This document shows positions 1 to 9,401 of a DNA stretch of 9,401 bases, piece after piece. Positions within the stretch are counted from its first letter, which is position 1. The number at the start of each line of letters is the position of its first letter. Under the pieces are notes generated by a model that saw nothing but the letters and a program-made list of their open reading frames with translations, was not told where the DNA came from and ran no database searches. Source of the stretch: a virus (lineage: Duplodnaviria > Heunggongvirae > Uroviricota > Caudoviricetes). A program made the translations under genes and the position numbers. The DNA is taken from positions 1-9,401 of IMG/VR virus record IMGVR_UViG_2537561618_000016; one strand, given 5' to 3'.

Positions 1-554
1 TCAAACGCCCCGAATTGAAGCCAAATCATCCAGACCGCTCGGCTCCTCTTTCATTTCACGCTGACGGCGATAAATCTCGTCGTTGCGATCGACCTGCGCC
101 TGCACCATTGCTGCCGCCAGTTCTTCCAGTTCCGGCATCGACAGTTTCACCTGCTGATTATCGGCATCGCTCCACGCCATATGTGTTTGTGCTGTGACAG
201 ATTTTGCCAGCATGACTACCGGGGACAGGCGGCCCAGTGAGTCGGGGCCAGCATTCCAGATACGACCGTTCCATTCAAACGTGAACGGCTTCGCCTCCTG
301 TTCTGCGCGCCATGCTTCAATTTCCTGACGTCTGGCCTCTCTGGCCGCTTCCAGCATTTCTGGTGTCACAGTGAATGGGGCTATCTCACCCCATTTGCCA
401 CTTTGCAGTTCCTGCCAGATTTGCTGACCCGTCGGTGCGACATCATCAGCGGTGGCTGTGTAGGGGACTGCCTGGTCCCTGTCGTCAAAAAAACGTCACA
501 GTCTACTGCGCCACTTTCGGTATAACGGGGATTAATGATTTTTTTAATTTCCAC
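1..554 (-). pseudogene. Putative tail fibre assembly/chaperone protein of the second fibre cassette (DUF4376-like C-terminal domain), frameshifted as sequenced: N-terminal segment 497-554, C-terminal segment 1-495
   Basis: Minus-strand ORF 1-369 extends open to 495 in the same frame, with stop at 1-3. Its sequence (FEWNGRIWNAGPDS...WSDADNQQVKLSMPELEELAAAMVQAQ) fits the DUF4376 pattern seen in phage tail fibre assembly proteins. An upstream ORF in another frame (...TVEIKKIINPRYTESGAVDCDVF) joins it across a 7-A run at 487-493; one extra base would give a continuous ~184 aa protein. A GAGGA Shine-Dalgarno (562-566) sits 7 nt before a GTG at 554. It lies directly downstream of a tail fibre gene. 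Confidence 0.55.
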
Positions 555-561
555 GGTGCAT

Positions 562-566
562 TCCTC
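562..566 (-). promoter_or_regulatory. Shine-Dalgarno (GAGGA) for the second chaperone gene, 7 nt upstream of GTG start at 554
   Basis: Plus-strand tcctc at 562-566 is GAGGA on the coding strand, followed by a 7-nt spacer and GTG. Confidence 0.4.
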
Positions 567-692
567 ACGATGTGCGAATAAAAAGCCCGGGCATTGCGCC
601 AGAGACATGTGCATCCGGCACCCCGGACAGGGCGCAATATGACCCCGGTAATGAATGCTCTGAACATCCCGTAATGAAAAATTGTGGGGATA

Positions 693-1979
693 CTATATAC
701 GTTCCGGTGGGAGTACTGGGCACTGAAATCCCCACCGGTCCCAGTCGTGAGCCTCTGTATGACTGCCCCCTGACAAGTCTGATGACTTTATCACCGTCAG
801 CTTCTCCTGGTACGCAGCAATAATCAGCCCGCCAATGTCAGGGTCTCCCCATCTGTTGCGGACAGAGCTCGCCACGATTCTGTAAATAATATCTTCTGTG
901 GTTATATTTATTTTCACCCAGCCAGTCAGTCTGGATATGGGCCAGTAGCAGTAGCGGGTGTGATAAATGGGGCCGTTAATGCCGTAAAAAGTAAGGGATT
1001 TGGCTCTGTACCGCGGTTCTGTTGTCTCAGGGCGTGCATCAGTCCACCGGATGCTGAGCACCCCTTCAAACCGTGTGTCGGGTATGATGATGCCGTAAGG
1101 GCCAGCAACGGAATATTCACCTGGCAGCGCATTCCTTACCCAGGCCAGGAAATCACTCTTAGTGTCAAAACGGATAACATCTTCAGGCAGAAAAGCACAC
1201 CCAAAGCCGAATGCGCCGGGTATCGCCAGACGGCCTTTTGTCCGGTCGTAAATGTCGCTCTGTGCTTCCATCGTGGCCGCACTTTTCAGCCCCAGATTAT
1301 CCCGGGACTTCTGTTGTGCCTTTTCGCCTGCTGCTGCGATTTCAGACAGATGGTTAGCCGTTTTCAGAGTGCCGGTCAGCGCAGCATCAATGTCATTTTT
1401 GGCCTGCTCTGCTGCGCGGGCATAACCTGCGGCATCCTGTGCGCTCTGTCCGGCTGCGGCTGCATTTGCTCCTGTGCTTGTCACATCTTCCGCAGTGGCC
1501 TTTCTGTCCTCAGCTGTGACGGTTGCATCCTGTCGGGCTTTCTCCGCAAAACGTTGTGCATCATCACGGGCCGTTGCGGCTGCCGCCACATCCTGCGCCG
1601 TCTGCTGTGCGTTTCCGGCTGCGGCCCCGGCGCTCTGCTGCGCCTGCGCCACCATTTCCTCAAAGCGTTTGACGACATCCGGTTTCAGGTCGCCCTCATC
1701 AGGAGCAATCAGAAAGTCATTCAGCGTGCCGGGCTTTGAGTCCTCATATACAGCAATGTCGCCAACGTTGTACTCGTTGCGCCAGTCCTGTTTCAGATAC
1801 ACACCATATTTTCCAGTCCGCGCATGGAAACAGTATTCACCATCGTTTCCTGTCATCACATCAGCAACAGTGTTCATCACCACTTCCGGGGTGTTTACCC
1901 GGGATTTCAGAATAATATGGTATCCGGACATGGGGATACCTGCGCCATCAGTCAGCGCACCTGATATCACTACAGACAT
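693..1979 (-). CDS. Tail fibre protein (428 aa) with lambda Stf-like N-terminal anchor domain and Ala/Gln-rich shaft
   Basis: The N-terminus MSVVISGALTDGAG...VYEDSKPGTLNDFL closely follows the conserved N-terminus of lambda Stf and lambdoid prophage side tail fibres (MAVKISGVLKDG...TVYEDSQPGTLNDFL, from memory), followed by a low-complexity Ala-rich region. ATG at 1979 lies 23 nt after the upstream chaperone stop; stop TAG at 693-695. Confidence 0.8.
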   Translation of the reverse strand: MSVVISGALTDGAGIPMSGYHIILKSRVNTPEVVMNTVADVMTGNDGEYCFHARTGKYGVYLKQDWRNEYNVGDIAVYEDSKPGTLNDFLIAPDEGDLKPDVVKRFEEMVAQAQQSAGAAAGNAQQTAQDVAAAATARDDAQRFAEKARQDATVTAEDRKATAEDVTSTGANAAAAGQSAQDAAGYARAAEQAKNDIDAALTGTLKTANHLSEIAAAGEKAQQKSRDNLGLKSAATMEAQSDIYDRTKGRLAIPGAFGFGCAFLPEDVIRFDTKSDFLAWVRNALPGEYSVAGPYGIIIPDTRFEGVLSIRWTDARPETTEPRYRAKSLTFYGINGPIYHTRYCYWPISRLTGWVKINITTEDIIYRIVASSVRNRWGDPDIGGLIIAAYQEKLTVIKSSDLSGGSHTEAHDWDRWGFQCPVLPPERI

Positions 1980-2002
1980 TGTTTTTCTCGCGATAAATTA
2001 AA

Positions 2003-2547
2003 TCAGGAAGAACCTTCCGGAGAGGCGGGCCATTCAATGGCGTTGTATGAGGATTTATCAGTGATGGTGCTGAAATCCATCGCCTGCAGCGATTTCGCGT
2101 AAATACGACAGGCTTTCAGCTTTTCTTTATCTTCGTCGCTGATTAACCCCAGCAGCAGGTCTTCTTCCCATTCCCCTGTCCGGGCACTGACCTGAGCCAG
2201 AAGGGCATCACGCTCATCTTCCGCTTTGAGTCTGTAGTCAAAGACAAATTCATCATTGCGGTAAAACCAGTAACCCGGCGCGGTAATCCGTCGGTTAGTG
2301 GTAATATCCGGAACTTCGATAACGCTGGCATTGCGTGGCTCGATGCCTGTCACATCCTTACCGACCCACACCACGCGACCATCTCCGGTGTAAGCTATTT
2401 TTATTGTGTCGCTGGCGAAATTCTTCAGCTCTTCATACCAGTTTTTCCGTCTTCTGAAAAAAGCCAGGTGACCGAATATCGTTTTGTCATCTGATATTGT
2501 TCTGCTGTTTTCGGATTACCCGCAGTAATATTTTTTAAATGCAACAT
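2003..2547 (-). pseudogene. Tail fibre assembly protein (lambda Tfa / e14 TfaE family), frameshifted as sequenced at a 5-T run (plus 2442-2446)
   Basis: ATG at 2547-2545 encodes [35 protein letters not shown], matching the canonical Tfa N-terminus ([19 protein letters not shown]...YTEDGKNWYEE). After the A5 run the Tfa sequence continues in the -1 frame (NWYEELKNF...SVIEVPDITTNRR...ISDEDKEKLKACRIYAKSL...IEWPASPE) to the stop at 2003-2005. One extra A restores a ~181 aa protein. The start is 2 nt after the fibre stop, suggesting translational coupling. Confidence 0.85.
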
Positions 2548-3035
2548 TGTTAAATACTCGCTACGTTATACCAGGTGCCATTAATCAGTTTTTGCAGTGG
2601 TCGGTAATACACACCGTCAACGTTATCCGCTGAGTTACGGCCGGTATCCGATATCGCCATCCCTGACAGCCCGTGTCCCGAAGGTGCGCAAAATCTCCAC
2701 GAAACGGTGTTACTGCCGGGGCTGTAATACATTTCATGGCCATACCGTACATCCTGTACCCCCTCTGTTCGATATTTATAGCGGGCATCGAAGTTTCCGT
2801 AATTTAACGGAATTACCTGTCCGTTAACAGTGAACACTATGCTGTTATCCGGGTTTCTCTGGCTGAAAAAATGCCAGCCTGAATCATCACCAAGCTCTGC
2901 AACAACAGGCCTGGATGGATTACCCCACAAATAAAACGCTGCATTTTTCGTGGAGTTGTTGGCGCTGGATAACGTGAATTTTCTGGCAGTTCCGGCCTGA
3001 ATATTCTTAAAAGCAATAGCCACTCCATTCTGAAA

Positions 3036-3040
3036 GCGGA
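3036..3040. repeat. IS2 target site duplication, left copy (GCGGA)
   Basis: Identical 5-mer gcgga immediately flanks both IS2 ends (3036-3040 and 4372-4376); IS2 makes 5-bp duplications. Confidence 0.85.
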
Positions 3041-3081
3041 TAGACTGGCCCCCTGAATCTCCAGACAACCAGTATCACTTA
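3041..3081. repeat. IS2 left terminal inverted repeat (approx. 41 bp, imperfect)
   Basis: Aligned by eye against the reverse complement of 4331-4371; shared TCCAGACA and TATCACTTA blocks with one gap. Confidence 0.7.
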
Positions 3082-3131
3082 TTTAAGTGATAGTCTTAAT
3101 ACTAGTTTTTAGACTAGTCATTGGAGAACAG

Positions 3132-3497
3132 ATGATTGATGTCTTAGGGCCGGAGAAACGCAGACGGCGTACCACACAGGAAAAGATCGCAATTGTTCAG
3201 CAGAGCTTTGAACCGGGGATGACGGTCTCCCTCGTTGCCCGGCAACATGGTGTAGCAGCCAGCCAGTTATTTCTCTGGCGTAAGCAATACCAGGAAGGAA
3301 GTCTTACTGCTGTGGCCGCCGGAGAACAGGTTGTTCCTGCCTCTGAACTTGCTGCCGCCATGAAGCAGATTAAAGAACTCCAGCGCCTGCTCGGCAAGAA
3401 AACGATGGAAAATGAACTCCTCAAAGAAGCCGTTGAATATGGACGGGCAAAAAAGTGGATAGCGCACGCGCCCTTATTGCCCGGGGATGGGGAGTAA
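3132..3497 (+). CDS. insC: IS2 transposase OrfA (InsC), 121 aa
   Basis: [56 protein letters not shown]... matches IS2 InsC. GGAGA Shine-Dalgarno at 3123-3127 precedes ATG 3132; the ORF-track start at 3087 is an upstream extension. Confidence 0.9.
3449..3455 (+). other. IS2 programmed -1 ribosomal frameshift heptamer A AAA AAG (makes the InsCD fusion transposase)
   Basis: The heptamer is in the insC zero frame (gca aaa aag tgg); the insD frame is -1 and open from this point. Confidence 0.8.
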
Positions 3498-4360
3498 GCT
3501 TAGTCAGCCGTTGTCTCCGGGTGTCGCGTGCGCAGTTGCACGTCATTCTCAGACGAACCGATGACTGGATGGATGGCCGCCGCAGTCGTCACACTGATGA
3601 TACGGATGTGCTTCTCCGTATACACCATGTTATCGGAGAGCTGCCCACGTATGGTTATCGTCGGGTATGGGCGCTGCTTCGCAGACAGGCAGAACTTGAT
3701 GGTATGCCTGCGATCAATGCCAAACGTGTTTACCGGCTCATGCGCCAGAATGCGCTGTTGCTTGAGCGAAAACCTGCTGTACCGCCATCGAAACGGGCAC
3801 ATACAGGCAGAGTGGCCGTGAAAGAAAGCAATCAGCGATGGTGCTCTGACGGGTTCGAGTTCTGCTGTGATAACGGAGAGAGACTGCGTGTCACGTTCGC
3901 GCTGGACTGCTGTGATCGTGAGGCACTGCACTGGGCGGTGACTACCGGCGGCTTCAACAGTGAAACAGTACAGGACGTCATGCTGGGAGCGGTGGAACGC
4001 CGCTTCGGCAACGATCTTCCGTCGTCTCCAGTGGAGTGGCTGACGGATAATGGTTCATGCTACCGGGCTAATGAAACACGCCAGTTCGCCCGGATGTTGG
4101 GACTTGAACCGAAGAACACGGCGGTGCGGAGTCCGGAGAGTAACGGAATAGCAGAGAGCTTCGTGAAAACGATAAAGCGTGACTACATCAGTATCATGCC
4201 CAAACCAGACGGGTTAACGGCAGCAAAGAACCTTGCAGAGGCGTTCGAGCATTATAACGAATGGCATCCGCATAGTGCGCTGGGTTATCGCTCGCCACGG
4301 GAATATCTGCGGCAGCGGGCTTGTAATGGGTTAAGTGATAACAGATGTCTGGAAATATAG
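3455..4360 (+). CDS. insD: IS2 transposase OrfB (InsD), DDE catalytic domain, 301 aa; expressed as InsCD fusion by -1 frameshift
   Basis: The 301-aa ORF in the -1 frame relative to insC matches IS2 InsD (...[42 protein letters not shown]...). Confidence 0.9.
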
Positions 4361-4371
4361 GGGCAAATCCA
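4331..4371. repeat. IS2 right terminal inverted repeat (approx. 41 bp, imperfect)
   Basis: The reverse complement TGGATTTGCCCCTATATTTCCAGACATCTGTTATCACTTA aligns with the left end. Confidence 0.7.
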
Positions 4372-4376
4372 GCGGA
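4372..4376. repeat. IS2 target site duplication, right copy (GCGGA)
   Basis: See the left copy at 3036-3040. Confidence 0.85.
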
Positions 4377-5257
4377 ATACACGCTGACTATTAGCATAAA
4401 CATCCAGAATACCGTCTCCATTCTGTTTAAATCCGGTGTCATTATCACCAAGAACAATTGAATTCCCCCCCAGGGCGTTCTGAACGCCGATACCCAGCGC
4501 ACCATTGACCTGCGAACCACCGCCAACAGACACTTTATGCGACATGGATATTTCACCCGTCCGCAAATTAATGGTGAACGGGCGCAGGGGACCAATATCG
4601 CCATTTTCCCCCTGACCTTCACTGGTGGGAATAAGGTGCAGGCACTCTTCCGAACGACGAAAAATCAGGCCAAAAGCTTCGTTGAAAATCCTCAGCGCAT
4701 TAACACCACGGATTTTCAGCTCTCCGGTTATTTTATCGCCTTCCCGATGAACATAGCGTTGATCTGACTGCTCTTTACTGTAAACCTGAAGATTATCCCG
4801 TGCCGTCCCTTTATTCTGAAGGTCTGACAGATTGTTCTTCTGCCGCAGGAATATCCTTTTCGGATCCTCAAGAAGATTTACCCAGCCCGCACTGTCGGAG
4901 CCTTCAGGATCGGTCAGGTTATCGTCCGTGGTATTCAGCCAGACCGCTGTTGTTGCGACTCCGGCGAGAATGGCTCCTTTTGCATATCCACCAATGGCCC
5001 CCGCAAAACCGGCATTATACGTGTACAAACCGCCAGCCTGGGCGAACCGTATTGCTGCGGTAATATCGTACATCAGACCGTTAAAATCCTTGCCGTGTGG
5101 CGGTATACCTCCCGCTGAGACCGCTGTCATGGTCACCGGAGGAAAACCTGAATCATACGCAGCATTACCGCTCTCTCTGGTCTGCTGTGTCGCCTTGTCC
5201 GGGATACGGTTTTTATCTCCGGTACTCGCAAAGGGGACCGCCAGCTGGCGGGGTTTA

Positions 5258-5863
5258 TCACTGGCCTTCATTACGGGACTCCTTTAAAACTACTGAAACA
5301 TAAACACCCGGCGGGGATGGCAGTGCACCCGACGACTGGATAATCGCCAGTTCTGCCAACGAGAGCGCGGACTCAAAGACGTAACTCATCCTCAGCCCGC
5401 CATTATTCAGAACATAAGCCCGGCGTTTTTTTCCGAACATAAATCTCAGCATCAGGTTAATATCCGGAACGGAACAGTCAGTAATGTTCGACATGGCTTT
5501 CATCAGTATCAGCCGCCAGTATACAGCATCAGACAGGTCAACAGTCCGGGTATCCGATTTTCCGTTGTAAAACGGTGCCTGATTAAACGGACAGGGATCA
5601 TCCATTACCGGGGTGTCCATCCTGGACTCGCTGAAGCCCAGGTAATTAAAATCGTCCTTTACCGTCAGCCAGCAACTGACACCCACAATCTTTCCCCAGA
5701 CATCAAGACCATACTTTTCTGCGGTATCGATGTTCCAGATAAGACCATAAAAATCACTGATAAAACTGTCGGGGGAAAGCGCTGCGTTAAAGCTGTTAAT
5801 GAGGGCATTGAGTCGGGGGCTGGCAGCATACTGCGCAAGCACAGTGGCAGCCACATTCTGCAC
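5258..5863 (-). CDS. Phage tail/baseplate-associated protein in the gpI (P2) / gp48 (Mu) / YmfQ (e14) position, 201 aa
   Basis: Intact ORF with GTG start at 5863 preceded by a GGAGG Shine-Dalgarno (5871-5875), 1 nt after the upstream stop. Its 3' end overlaps the fibre start by 14 nt. It sits between a J-like gene and the tail fibre, as in the P2 J-I-H-G and Mu gp47-gp48-S-U order. The family assignment is by synteny and size, not a confident sequence match. Confidence 0.6.
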
Positions 5864-5864
5864 G

Positions 5865-6566
5865 TTATGCCTCCTGGAGTTTCACACTGATATCCGACAC
5901 ATCCAGAACCGGAATCTCATCTATCCCGAAAGTGACAGCCGTTGTCCATGACGAACCATCACGGCTCACAGTAAGGCCCAGAATATCAATATGTTCCGGA
6001 TCGGTTTTGTAAATGCCGGCATAGTAGCGCCCGGCAGAGACAACAGAGGCAACTCTTGCCCGCAGACCACCATCTGTACCATTAAATGCGTCCAGCACGG
6101 ATTGCTGTACCTGTCGGGTAATATCTGAAGGCAGGTAGTCACTTTTTTTCAGCGTCACACTGACATGCAGACTGACGGGTTTGAGTGTCTGCCAGCTGAT
6201 CACGTATTCAGGATACGGCGGATCGTACTCCTTATCTGCAACAGTGAACGTTGTGTTGCCATTCATATCAATACCCGGCGGAGCCTTACGCCAGATGGCC
6301 GCCGCGATATCTGCCGGGCTGCCGCCGTACACGCCAACATAAAGCGAACCGGGTGTTAATGGATACTGACTGACTCCGGCTTTTTGTTCTGTTTTTTTCG
6401 GATTATGGGTGACGTAAACATCCACCACGTTTTCTACCGTGGAGAGTATTTCACCCCGGATGGCTTCCAGAATATTCCGGGCATTACGGGCAACTGAATT
6501 ACGTCGGCGGTTTTCAAAGTCCGCACGGGTTTCCTCATCGCTGCCCGGCACACCGGCACGGGCGTT
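5865..6566 (-). pseudogene. Baseplate assembly protein J-like (P2 gpJ / Mu gp47 position), 5'-truncated at the IS600-like element
   Basis: The reading frame is open from the IS boundary (6566) to the stop at 5865-5867 (233 codons), with no credible start or Shine-Dalgarno. It is immediately upstream of the gpI-like gene. The J-family assignment is by synteny only. Confidence 0.5.
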
Positions 6567-6630
6567 TGAGGTAGCCTGAGTTTAACGGACACTCCTTCCT
6601 GAAATAGAATGGCATCAGAAGGAGCTAATA

Positions 6631-6918
6631 ATGAGCAGAAAAACCCAACGTTACTCTAAAGAGTTCAAAGCCGAAGCTGTCAGAACGGTTCTTGAAAATC
6701 AACTTTCGATCAGTGAAGGCGCTTCCCGATTATCTCTTCCTGAAGGCACTTTAGGACAATGGGTTACCGCCGCCAGAAAAGGGCTCGGTACTCCTGGTTC
6801 CCGCACGGTGGCTGAACTGGAATCTGAAATTCTGCAACTGCGTAAGGCGTTAAATGAAGCTCGCCTTGAGCGAGATATATTAAAAAAGCAACAGCGTATT
6901 TTGCACAGGAGTCACTGA
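6631..6918 (+). CDS. IS600-like transposase OrfA (HTH DNA-binding), 95 aa as sequenced
   Basis: MSRKTQRYSKEFKAEAVRTVLENQLSISEGASRLSLPEGTLGQWV...LERDILKK is an IS3-family OrfA. The C-terminal tail KQQRILHRSH looks aberrant; the -1 frame gives the expected ATAYFAQESLKNTR ending. Confidence 0.85.
   Translation: MSRKTQRYSKEFKAEAVRTVLENQLSISEGASRLSLPEGTLGQWVTAARKGLGTPGSRTVAELESEILQLRKALNEARLERDILKKQQRILHRSH
6882..6888 (+). other. A AAA AAG slippery heptamer of IS600-like orfA (A6 tract); orfB frame opens here but is +1, not -1, to orfA
   Basis: Codons tta aaa aag are in the orfA frame; the orfB frame (KSNSVFCTGVTEKYALIEQWRQQFPIEVMCQVF...) is open from 6884. Confidence 0.6.
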
Positions 6919-6964
6919 AAAATACGCGTTAATCGAACAATGGCGACAACAATTTCCCATTGAA

Positions 6965-7786
6965 GTGATGTGTCAGGTATTTGGTGTATCCAGGAGCGGT
7001 TATTACAACTGGGTACAGCATGAACCCTCAGACAGAAAACAAAGTGATGAGCGGCTAAAACTGGAGATTAAGGTGGCACATATCCGCACTCGCGAAACAT
7101 ATGGAACCCGGCGGCTCCAGACGGAGCTGGCAGAGAATGGCATCATCGTTGGTCGTGACCGACTGGCACGTCTTCGTAAGGAGCTGAGGCTACGCTGTAA
7201 GCAGAAACGCAAGTTCAGAGCGACTACGAACCCGAACCACAATCTGCCAGTTGCGCCAAATCTGCTGAACCAGACGTTCGCTCCTACAGCACCAAATCAA
7301 GTCTGGGTGGCGGACCTGACGTATGTTGCCACACAGGAAGGATGGTTGTACCTCGCTGGCATCAAAGATGTTTATACGTGCGAAATTGTCGGCTACGCCA
7401 TGGGAGAGCGCATGACAAAAGAGCTGACAGGTAAAGCCCTGTTTATGGCGCTCAGGAGCCAGCGCCCACCTGCCGGGCTAATCCACCACTCTGATCGAGG
7501 TTCACAGTACTGCGCATACGATTACCGGGTCATACAGGAGCAGTTTGGTCTGAAAACATCAATGTCGCGTAAAGGTAACTGTTACGACAACGCTCCGATG
7601 GAAAGCTTCTGGGGAACGCTGAAAAATGAGAGCCTGAGCCACTATCGTTTTAATAACCGGGATGAAGCCATCTCAGTAATACGGGAATACATTGAGATTT
7701 TCTACAATCGTCAGCGTCGTCACTCTCGTCTGGGGAATATCTCCCCGGCAGCCTTCAGGGAAAAACATCATCAGATGGCTGCTTAA
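6965..7786 (+). CDS. IS600-like transposase OrfB (DDE integrase-type catalytic domain), 273 aa from the first in-frame start; frame open from 6884
   Basis: IS3-family OrfB hallmarks: SRSGYYNW, WVADLTY, HSDRGSQY, NAPMESFWGTLK, YNRQRRHS. Confidence 0.85.
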   Translation: MMCQVFGVSRSGYYNWVQHEPSDRKQSDERLKLEIKVAHIRTRETYGTRRLQTELAENGIIVGRDRLARLRKELRLRCKQKRKFRATTNPNHNLPVAPNLLNQTFAPTAPNQVWVADLTYVATQEGWLYLAGIKDVYTCEIVGYAMGERMTKELTGKALFMALRSQRPPAGLIHHSDRGSQYCAYDYRVIQEQFGLKTSMSRKGNCYDNAPMESFWGTLKNESLSHYRFNNRDEAISVIREYIEIFYNRQRRHSRLGNISPAAFREKHHQMAA

Positions 7787-7829
7787 AAAAAGAACAAATG
7801 GTAGTGTCCGCTATTGCCAGTACACCTCA

Positions 7830-8926
7830 TTTTACAGCCCCGTCCGGGCTGTATGTTTTCACCAGCTTATCCAGTGATCGTTTTGAAAATGGCTGCATTG
7901 GATCACGTGGCTGCAAAAATACATAATCCCTGTTGCACTCAGGAACTGAATCACGCCAGGCTTTCTGCTCGTCGATAATCCGCCGGATCTCAGGCGTTAT
8001 CGGCAGGCGGAAAGCCTTTTGTGTTTTCATAGCCCCTCGCATGCCGATAACCCCTTCCGGATAAACAATTTCACCAGCCTCCTCGTAAACGTAGTCCCAG
8101 CGCAGGTTATGGACATTAATCGGACGAACACCAGTGATGATCATGAAGCGAACAGCATTCTTCTGGTGTACAGAGGTGCAGGCAGCAACATTGAGCCAGA
8201 GTCGGGCGATTGATTCAATATCGGTAAAAAGCCGTGTGGGGGTAGGTTTCTGTACGCGGGAGGAAACATAATCATCTGGCAGACTGGCGGCAACATTGCG
8301 GCCGTTGCAAAGAGTAGGTGCGCAGAACTTCCAGAACCGACGGAGCTCGGCAAACAACTCCAGGGCGTTATTGTTCGAGCGAGTGGCGATCCACTCGTCC
8401 AGCACTTCCACCAGCCGATTGTATGTTACGTCGCTGAACACCTCACGCTCGCCGAACGTTGCTTTAATCCGGTCGATACGCACCCCGTAGGTTGTGAAAC
8501 TGTCCGGGCTCAGCTTCTGCCGGGCTACTTTGGCTTTGGGTCATCCCGGTACATTTCCAGCGCTGCATGTACGGACTCTGCCCGCAGTCCACCGTCAGCC
8601 ATACCTAGTGCTTTTTCGCGCGCCAGCTGGATAACGAGCTCCGGCCACTCGCCGAGCTTTTTACCTTTGAGGCCCATCTTTTTTGGAAACTCGGCGTAAA
8701 ATGTAACCTTACCGGCTTTGCTGAAATCGATACGGAGATAGTTCTCTTTTTCGTATTTGGAACGGCGAGCCACGCCGGAAGCAGCGAGGATGATTTTGGC
8801 GGCAGCAACACAGATTTTCATGTGTGCGCTGGTATAGGGGGGTTTACAGGCGTCCCATTTTTCAGATGCGGCTAAAACATCGTCATTATTGGGGCTATCC
8901 GGATTATGTGTTACAGTGCGCGGCAT
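7830..8926 (-). pseudogene. Phage integrase (tyrosine recombinase, P4-type with arm-binding N-terminal domain), frameshifted near 8529-8537 and 3'-truncated by the IS600-like element
   Basis: ATG at 8926 with AAGGA Shine-Dalgarno. The N-terminal segment (...KVTFYAEFPKKMGLKGKKLGEWPELVIQLAREKA...) resembles the P4-type arm-binding domain and stops at 8525. The downstream segment continues in the -1 frame from 8540 and carries box I (ITGVRPINVHNLRWDYV) and the lysine hairpin (MKTQKAFRLPITPEI). The frame runs into the IS terminus at 7829, and the catalytic H-x-x-R and Tyr regions are absent. Confidence 0.75.
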
Positions 8927-9131
8927 TCTCAATCCTTATCTGCGTAGGCGCAGAAAACAAGCTCACACATACAAGTCTTTTCTACGGGACAAAATGCAAT
9001 GTGTTGCGGTTTTGTGTTGCTGGACTGAGTTTATCAAGGTTAAATACACTGGATCAACATACAGTAAGTTAATGACAGTAAAGCATACAAACTCGATACA
9101 ACTTACTGATTTTAAAATGATTTAACGGTAA

Positions 9132-9401
<270 letters not shown>

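Follow-up and report, generated by a model that had tools for sequence, protein, structure and literature searches.

We analyse here a window of 9,401 nucleotides, positions 1 to 9,401 of the IMG/VR virus record IMGVR_UViG_2537561618_000016, whose source is contig AFHC01000047.1 in a 2011 draft assembly (GCA_000213475.2) from Shigella flexneri 4343-70. Its interval 1..5271 holds two tail fibre genes, each followed by the gene of a chaperone. This region very probably comes from a temperate myovirus, now degraded, of which it is the host-recognition end: where the block is intact, it would make both fibres at once, without any switching, and nothing of it works here. An earlier note, made from the sequence alone, had described two tandem fibre plus chaperone cassettes in the same orientation and 23 nucleotides apart. 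This layout holds: both cassettes lie on the minus strand, as does every phage gene of the window.

All four genes of the module are damaged: the gene of fibre 1 by an insertion sequence, IS2, and the Tfa chaperone gene, the gene of fibre 2 and the DUF4376 chaperone gene by frameshifts. Whether or not the small insertions and deletions (indels) are real, there is no tail left for the fibres: an IS600 element joins the middle of a baseplate J gene to a truncated integrase gene, and the genes that intact relatives have for the hub, tube, sheath, neck and head are gone. The arrangement has been in GenBank since phage phiP27, it is common in prophages of Escherichia coli and Shigella, and the window holds a degraded member of this known module type. 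Since intact phages such as phiP27 already carry this module, and since its four genes are all damaged here, it must be considered ordinary.

The two cassettes and their damage

The gene of fibre 1 is cut by a copy of IS2 of 1331 bp (3041..4371, plus strand), 99.7% identical to the IS2 copy of the related prophage in E. coli VL40. Both fragments are on the minus strand: the 5' part, 4372..5271, is recognized by tblastn and by PHROG 11982 and 6859, and the 3' part, 2550..3040, which encodes a distal tip of the P2 H / Mu S type, by tblastn and by its match to PDB entry 5yvq. The element has terminal inverted repeats and two transposase open reading frames (ORFs) at 3087-3497 and 3455-4360, and 5 bp of the target, GCGGA, are duplicated on its two sides (3036-3040 and 4372-4376). 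Excising it in silico together with one copy of GCGGA restores an ORF of 461 amino acids for fibre 1, so that the disruption by IS2 reported in the earlier note is borne out.

The fragments of fibre 1 have no Pfam match, and the fibre was identified through tblastn, PHROGs and sequence matches to PDB entries. With the C-terminal part of P2 gpH, residues 255-461 share 61% identity (tblastn, E-value 3e-70), and residues 362-460 match the Mu tail fibre S (PDB 5yvq, E-value 5.6e-14). In tblastn comparisons, similarity begins at residue 255 for P2, at residue 181 for SfMu and at residue 142 for phiP27. The N-terminus is not of the P2 H / Mu S attachment type: residues 1-177 belong to PHROG 11982/12796, and residues 1 to about 170 would constitute, from these comparisons, a lineage-specific baseplate anchor, followed by a shaft shared with phiP27 L54. 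Since these first 170 or so residues match neither P2 nor Mu, the label “P2 H / Mu S-type”, which had been given to the whole fibre, is valid for its distal half only.

The Tfa chaperone gene of cassette 1 (2003..2547, minus strand) has its ATG at 2547, 2 nucleotides after the stop codon of fibre 1. Alignment and translation locate in it a deletion of 1 nucleotide at 2446/2447, so that a stop comes after about 40 codons, and only an ORF starting at a GTG, 2374-2003, stays open. The Caudo_TAP domain (PF02413, E-value 2.7e-23) directly follows the fibre, as expected from the lambda-Tfa type assigned earlier to this chaperone.

The inter-cassette spacer, interval 1980..2002 on the minus strand, separates this gene from that of fibre 2. 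In cassette 2, indels were located by alignment to the E. coli prophages CFSAN029787 and VL40, which have the same genes with 98-99% identity, and to protein P0129 (S. boydii WP_039066297.1). The gene of fibre 2 has GG at positions 806-807 where its relatives have GGG, a deletion of 1 nucleotide that shifts the frame. The ORF of 428 amino acids that can be read at 1979-693 is thus a frameshift product: its last 38 residues are out of frame, including the ending “...WDRWGFQCPVLPPERI” that the earlier note had quoted as part of an unfamiliar tip, and which is an artefact. The genuine C-terminal end of 81 residues lies in the frame of the ORF 735-565 and finishes with GLFIRTS, in agreement with the conserved ending G-L-F-(I/V)-R of phiP27 L56, SerU-LTIIb Stf and Av-05 gp76. 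The true extent of fibre 2 is 565..1979 (minus strand): inserting one base yields a protein of 471 amino acids whose sole difference from P0129 is T207M. More generally, an unfamiliar C-terminal sequence needs a frameshift check before being called a new domain.

The partner of fibre 2, downstream, is not a Caudo_TAP protein: it matches DUF4376 (PF14301, E-value 8.9e-17, or 9e-17 rounded), the type named in the earlier note. The gene (1..554, minus strand, located by DNA alignment) is a pseudogene as sequenced, and its end coincides with position 1 of the window. A run of seven T at 487-493, against eight in the relatives, splits it into 554-381 and 369-1, and GGGG at 8-11, against GGG in the relatives, creates with its additional G a stop at 3-1. 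Neither chaperone gene thus has an intact ORF: Tfa has its deletion, and the DUF4376 gene two frameshifts. The likely start of the latter is the GTG at 554, with GAGGA upstream, 10 nucleotides after the stop codon of fibre 2 (565-567). In addition to GAGGA, the alignment with PHROG 1141, which begins at residue 19 of the annotated form of 207 amino acids, and the homologues in phiP27, Av-05 and SerU suggest that this is the true start. Relatives in RefSeq are annotated with a start at the ATG equivalent to 614, overlapping the end of fibre 2 by 50 nucleotides; the corresponding spans are 554-614 in the window, 12545-12594 in the CFSAN029787 locus and 8565-8614 in the VL40 locus.

The two chaperones share one family match. 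PHROG 11571 matches the N-terminal part of Tfa (residues 26-112) and the C-terminal part of the DUF4376 chaperone (residues 71-206), the comparisons being made on intact forms, at 13837-14382 of the CFSAN029787 locus and 7991-8614 of the VL40 locus. Judging by these matches, hybrid chaperones combining the Caudo_TAP and DUF4376 types appear to exist.

Two other accounts of this damage can be proposed. The earlier note considered that, cassette 1 being destroyed, cassette 2 would be the only intact fibre, possibly functional and bearing a novel tip that ends in WDRWGFQCPVLPPERI. The ORFs 1979-693 and 369-1, the second in the DUF4376 gene, are indeed open, but we count three frameshifts in cassette 2, every relative of the fibre continues in the other frame to GLF(I/V)R, a single inserted base restores the match to P0129, the chaperone gene is split, and the deletion next to IS600, which adjoins half a baseplate J gene and a broken integrase, leaves no tail: this account is very improbable. 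A better alternative, yet still an unlikely one, is that the four indels are errors of the 2011 draft, and that the ORFs of Tfa, fibre 2 and the DUF4376 chaperone are really intact. The changes from GGG to GG, from eight T to seven and from GGG to GGGG are in homopolymers, and the fourth indel is beside a run of five A; the products of 428 and 57 amino acids created by the frameshifts are found on this contig only, among some 15 billion proteins; and a near-identical intact protein exists in S. boydii. However, there are no indels with respect to VL40 in 1833 nucleotides of upstream phage genes nor in the 1331 nucleotides of IS2, and the lengths of the housekeeping genes on the contig, recO, pdxJ, acpS and yfhL, look normal. 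Decay is common in Shigella, and four indels clustered within 2.5 kb, in a prophage dead already, are consistent with it; we lean towards real decay as the probable explanation.

The module in other phages

The spacer between the two cassettes has exactly 23 nucleotides, TTTAATTTATCGCGAGAAAAACA, and carries the ribosome-binding site of fibre 2. It is nearly invariant in an alignment of five loci, those of the window, CFSAN029787, phiP27, Rac-SA53 and pPE4, and a prophage of E. coli W has the same gap of 23 nucleotides. The same order of four genes, with this gap, is found in phiP27, in Rac-SA53 (tail1-tail4), in the Actinobacillus phage pPE4 (gp67-gp70) and in the E. coli W prophage; the junction between cassettes, sought with a probe of 401 nucleotides at a coverage of at least 80%, is present in at least 118 of 5426 complete E. 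coli genomes. A short hairpin, GGAAGnnnCTTCC, spans the stop codon of Tfa at 2018-2006. The region of the spacer and the hairpin could be the trace of a recombination joint, or serve to adjust the ratio of fibre 1 to fibre 2.

At least three types of baseplate carry the module: baseplate J with DUF2612 in this prophage, Baseplate_J with Mu Gp48 in phiP27, and baseplate J with a protein of 208 amino acids that has no Pfam match in Rac-SA53 and pPE4. The earlier note had seen a mosaic in the presence of a lambda Stf-type anchor downstream of contractile-tail baseplate genes. The same tandem module is in fact standard in several lineages of phages with contractile tails.

A detailed comparison can be made with genes L54-L57 of phiP27 (NC_003356, 38636-42244), a Stx2e phage in which the four genes have the same order, at the end of the prophage with attR next to them, and without an invertase. 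When 23 structural proteins of CFSAN029787 (locus 11971-28683) are compared by tblastn to the whole of phiP27, only four match: fibre 1 from residue 142, Tfa, fibre 2 and the second chaperone. Between phiP27 and this intact relative, Tfa is 74% and the DUF4376 chaperone 75% identical, and the shaft of fibre 1 is 81% identical over residues 142-304; the anchor of fibre 2 is 87% identical between phiP27 and the prophage studied here. The rest of the phage differs: phiP27 has a Mu-type baseplate (Baseplate_J and Mu Gp48), no further structural protein matches, the tip of L56 is divergent, with a tblastn match limited to residues 1-291, and all four genes are intact. As far as protein similarity can tell, the host-recognition module would thus have moved as a block between contractile tails that have otherwise no detectable similarity.

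Parts of cassette 2 are found in other settings. The fibre gp26 of the Alteromonas myovirus V22 is directly followed, as here, by a DUF4376 chaperone, gp27, and the baseplate of V22 includes a DUF2612 protein and a wedge protein like XM1 gp16; the DUF4376 protein is experimentally required for an active fibre. V22 differs by its marine host, and no PF08400 anchor is reported for gp26 (PMC7289586, PMC10579305). The proteins gp76/gp77 of Av-05 (Vequintavirinae) and Stf/Stf2 of SerU-LTIIb have the same family of tips together with a DUF4376 partner: the tip of Av-05 gp76 aligns with fibre 2 up to the last residues, GLF(I/M)R, with 32% identity and an E-value of 2e-37. Their N-terminal anchors differ, and Av-05 is a virulent phage with a genome of 121 kb. 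The chaperone partners of phiP27, Rac-SA53, pPE4, Av-05 and SerU all match DUF4376.

Two sets of fibre and chaperone genes at the end of a tail operon also occur in the invertible segments Mu G, P1 C and e14 P, and the tip of fibre 1 is homologous to those of Mu S, P1 S and P2 H. Contrary to these systems, the two sets are here co-directional and of unrelated families, fibres 1 and 2 having a local alignment score of 45. The window contains neither an invertase nor an inverted fibre partner; a crossover core of the AAACCnnGGTTT type (gix/hix-like), with at most one mismatch, is found neither in the window nor in the syntenic VL40 locus; and no relevant inverted repeats flank the region, the only long one in VL40 being the ends of IS2. 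An inversion switch, which the earlier note had already set aside, is therefore rejected.

There remains the conjecture that the cassettes are the fossil of such a switch, having lost its inverted partner and left a Pin remnant in a relative. The note had proposed to look left of position 1 for an invertase or inverted fibre segments. The contig itself ends there in an ipaH gene, but in VL40, where this prophage occupies the same site, there is a pinE pseudogene some 2.5 kb from the DUF4376 gene, with ipaH in between; no inverted 3' segments of fibres accompany it. The fibres and chaperones belong to unrelated families and are not alternative 3' ends of one gene, the flanking inverted repeats and the AAACCnnGGTTT core are absent from both loci, and the identical module, likewise co-directional, stands without an invertase at the end of four other phages or prophages: the fossil is hardly credible. 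In the intact relatives, the attachment site comes directly after the second chaperone, without an invertase there.

Proposed expression and docking of the two fibres

Fibre 2 has three parts. Its anchor, residues 1-131 (1587..1979, minus strand), is the PF08400 region (E-value 5e-70), and the lambda Stf-type N-terminus recognized in the earlier note is correct; it contains a beta-sandwich collar domain, approximately residues 1-95. This anchor is homologous to gpStfN of Ur-lambda and to gp40 of XM1, and records of lambda match fibre 2 over residues 1-110 only. In Ur-lambda, the place where the gpV and gpM rings meet is surrounded by a collar made of 12 gpStfN copies (residues 1-94) (PDB 9e7m; PMC12617516); in XM1, six trimers of gp40 sit on the neck (PMC10457771).

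The stalk (1296..1586, minus strand), rich in alanine and glutamate, is delimited by blastn breakpoints and protein comparison. AlphaFold2 models it as long helices of low confidence, as expected for a monomer model of a trimeric coiled coil. A stretch of 141 nucleotides (47 amino acids) in it, 1434-1574, also rich in alanine and glutamate, is missing from the E. coli relatives, and kept in Shigella forms of 467 and 471 amino acids. In the 467-amino-acid forms, this stalk and tip follow another anchor of the PF08400 type (MPQLKGVIKTPTGEPL...), evidence that anchors are swapped.

The tip, or receptor-binding domain, residues 229-471 of the repaired protein (565..1295, minus strand), begins at the motif LGLKSAA...DIYDRT.G.LAIPGAFGFG. 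Its predicted local distance difference test (pLDDT) score is about 85-90 in the full-length AlphaFold2 model, and 74 when the tip is modelled alone. The suggestion that this tip is uncharacterized stands in part: the searches yielded no close solved structure, and no receptor is assigned to the family in the literature searched. On the other hand, the family is catalogued, as PHROG 2636 (E-value 6e-201) and through Av-05 gp76; it is not T4 gp37-like with a Caudo_TAP partner, and it is a small one, counting 85 representatives at 50% identity in a set of 1.84 billion proteins. A search for a solved relative of the DUF4376 chaperone gave none. Some fibres have two or three tandem copies of the tip (P0165, P0166 and P0167; Av-05 gp78, locus 4472-6109), each starting with DIYDRT.G..A.PGAFGFG.

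A scan of interval 1-5400 for promoters and terminators gave counts no higher than in shuffled sequence. A co-directional block with a gap of 23 nucleotides that holds a ribosome-binding site, and with no terminator above chance, suggests that both pairs of fibre and chaperone are expressed together. In intact relatives, a single segment of the late operon would thus produce two different fibres simultaneously. Fibre 1 would be a baseplate fibre, with an N-terminus that varies with the type of baseplate, folded by its Tfa (Caudo_TAP) chaperone. Fibre 2 would combine a collar of the Stf type, a coiled-coil stalk and a beta-rich tip of 240 residues folded by the adjacent DUF4376 chaperone; like Stf in Ur-lambda, it could be an accessory adhesin which, by using a second receptor, makes adsorption faster.

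The proposed parallels have their limits. The Stf/Tfa pair of Ur-lambda (PDB 9e7m) belongs to a non-contractile tail, with a collar at gpV/gpM near the tip of the tail and a distal part like T4 gp37 (PMC12617516), whereas the relatives of our prophage have contractile tails, and fibre 2 another family of tips and a DUF4376 partner. The collar spike gp40 of XM1 (PDB 7kjk; PMC10457771) has 839 amino acids and a C-terminal part like a tailspike, and its sequence match is weak. The docking site of the anchor on contractile tails is not identified in the literature searched. By analogy with XM1 gp40, we tentatively place the collar on the exposed neck ring of the contractile tail, rather than on the baseplate, though the odds are somewhat against this placement. 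An appeal to neck homology is of little help: the terminator protein of the intact relative matches XM1 gp5 with an E-value of 0.74, too weak to use.

Several observations weigh against the picture drawn so far, in its docking as in its decay. In sequence comparison, the anchor scores higher with lambda Stf (62.7 bits) than with XM1 gp40 (27.9 bits); and phiP27, though its neck, tube, sheath and baseplate are without detectable similarity to those of this prophage, has an anchor that is 87% identical, so that a neck contact specific to the lineage is not obviously conserved. As for the damage, three of the four indels lie in homopolymer runs, for which reason sequencing error is possible, and the fourth adjoins one; the products tested come from one 2011 draft assembly only, and some of the indels could be sequencing errors.

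An anchor that is conserved while the other structural proteins differ either grips a ring whose fold is conserved, or has a partner that travels in the module. In a rival placement, fibre 2 docks on the shaft of the co-transferred fibre 1, or on the rim of the baseplate, forming a branched fibre. A travelling partner would explain the portability of the anchor, and phiP27 shares precisely fibre 1 from residue 142, Tfa, fibre 2 and the chaperone. However, the homologous domain binds hexameric tail rings in both solved cases, gpV/gpM in lambda (PMC12617516) and gp4/gp5 in XM1 (PMC10457771), and fibre 1 of CFSAN029787 has a different mid-shaft with the same fibre 2 anchor. We thus hold a branched fibre to be improbable, and less so a collar on the neck.

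It can also be conjectured, though this is less likely than not, that the Stf-type collar fibre and its DUF4376 chaperone form a self-contained “plug-in” adhesin, independent of the type of tail, whose unit of exchange is marked by the spacer of 23 nucleotides. If so, the same anchor would serve the Mu-type phiP27, the E217/XM1-type Shigella prophage and, more distantly, lambda, gripping either a conserved hexameric ring, which would be the neck on myoviruses, or a co-travelling partner, fibre 1. The window itself, which holds the end of a dead prophage within a Shigella ipaH island, has very little significance. For the engineering of phage host range, the module at large has modest interest: its portable anchor seems to work on unrelated tails, its tips can be swapped, and it has a dedicated chaperone.

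The surrounding prophage

Directly upstream of fibre 1 lies the gene of a DUF2612 baseplate wedge protein (5258..5863, minus strand; PF11041, E-value 2e-61), similar to XM1 gp17 (PDB 7kh1, E-value 2.2e-5). It is preceded by the gene of baseplate J/gp47 (5865..6551, minus strand; PHROG 6), of which comparison with CFSAN029787 and VL40 shows that only the 228 C-terminal residues of 413 are left, the upstream part being lost. The IS600 element (6574-7829) stands between this half gene and the broken tyrosine integrase, truncated and in two fragments (8932-8525 and 8483-7827). It looks as if the whole region from head to hub, which corresponds to 17-29 kb of the CFSAN029787 locus, was lost by a deletion linked to IS600. 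The prophage is integrated beside yfhL (9141-9401, plus strand). Scans of the window for Rfam families and for tRNA genes gave no matches.

On the other side, the source contig ends 239 nucleotides left of the window, within the 3' end of a convergent ipaH gene, which places the module in a Shigella ipaH island. Between the DUF4376 chaperone gene and ipaH, we note a GC-rich hairpin followed by a run of T (GGAGGCCCGGGGGCGGGCCTCC TTTTT). In E. coli VL40, the prophage is followed by ipaHb, then by the pinE pseudogene, and then by yfhH.

Intact versions of this prophage, with a full tail operon, are known from the comparison with CFSAN029787 and VL40. They encode a sheath, baseplate J and DUF2612, that is, a contractile tail. 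This tail is of the E217/Pa193/XM1 type: the DUF2612 protein resembles XM1 gp17, baseplate J resembles E217 gp44 and XM1 gp16, and the sheath resembles those of E217 and Pa193.

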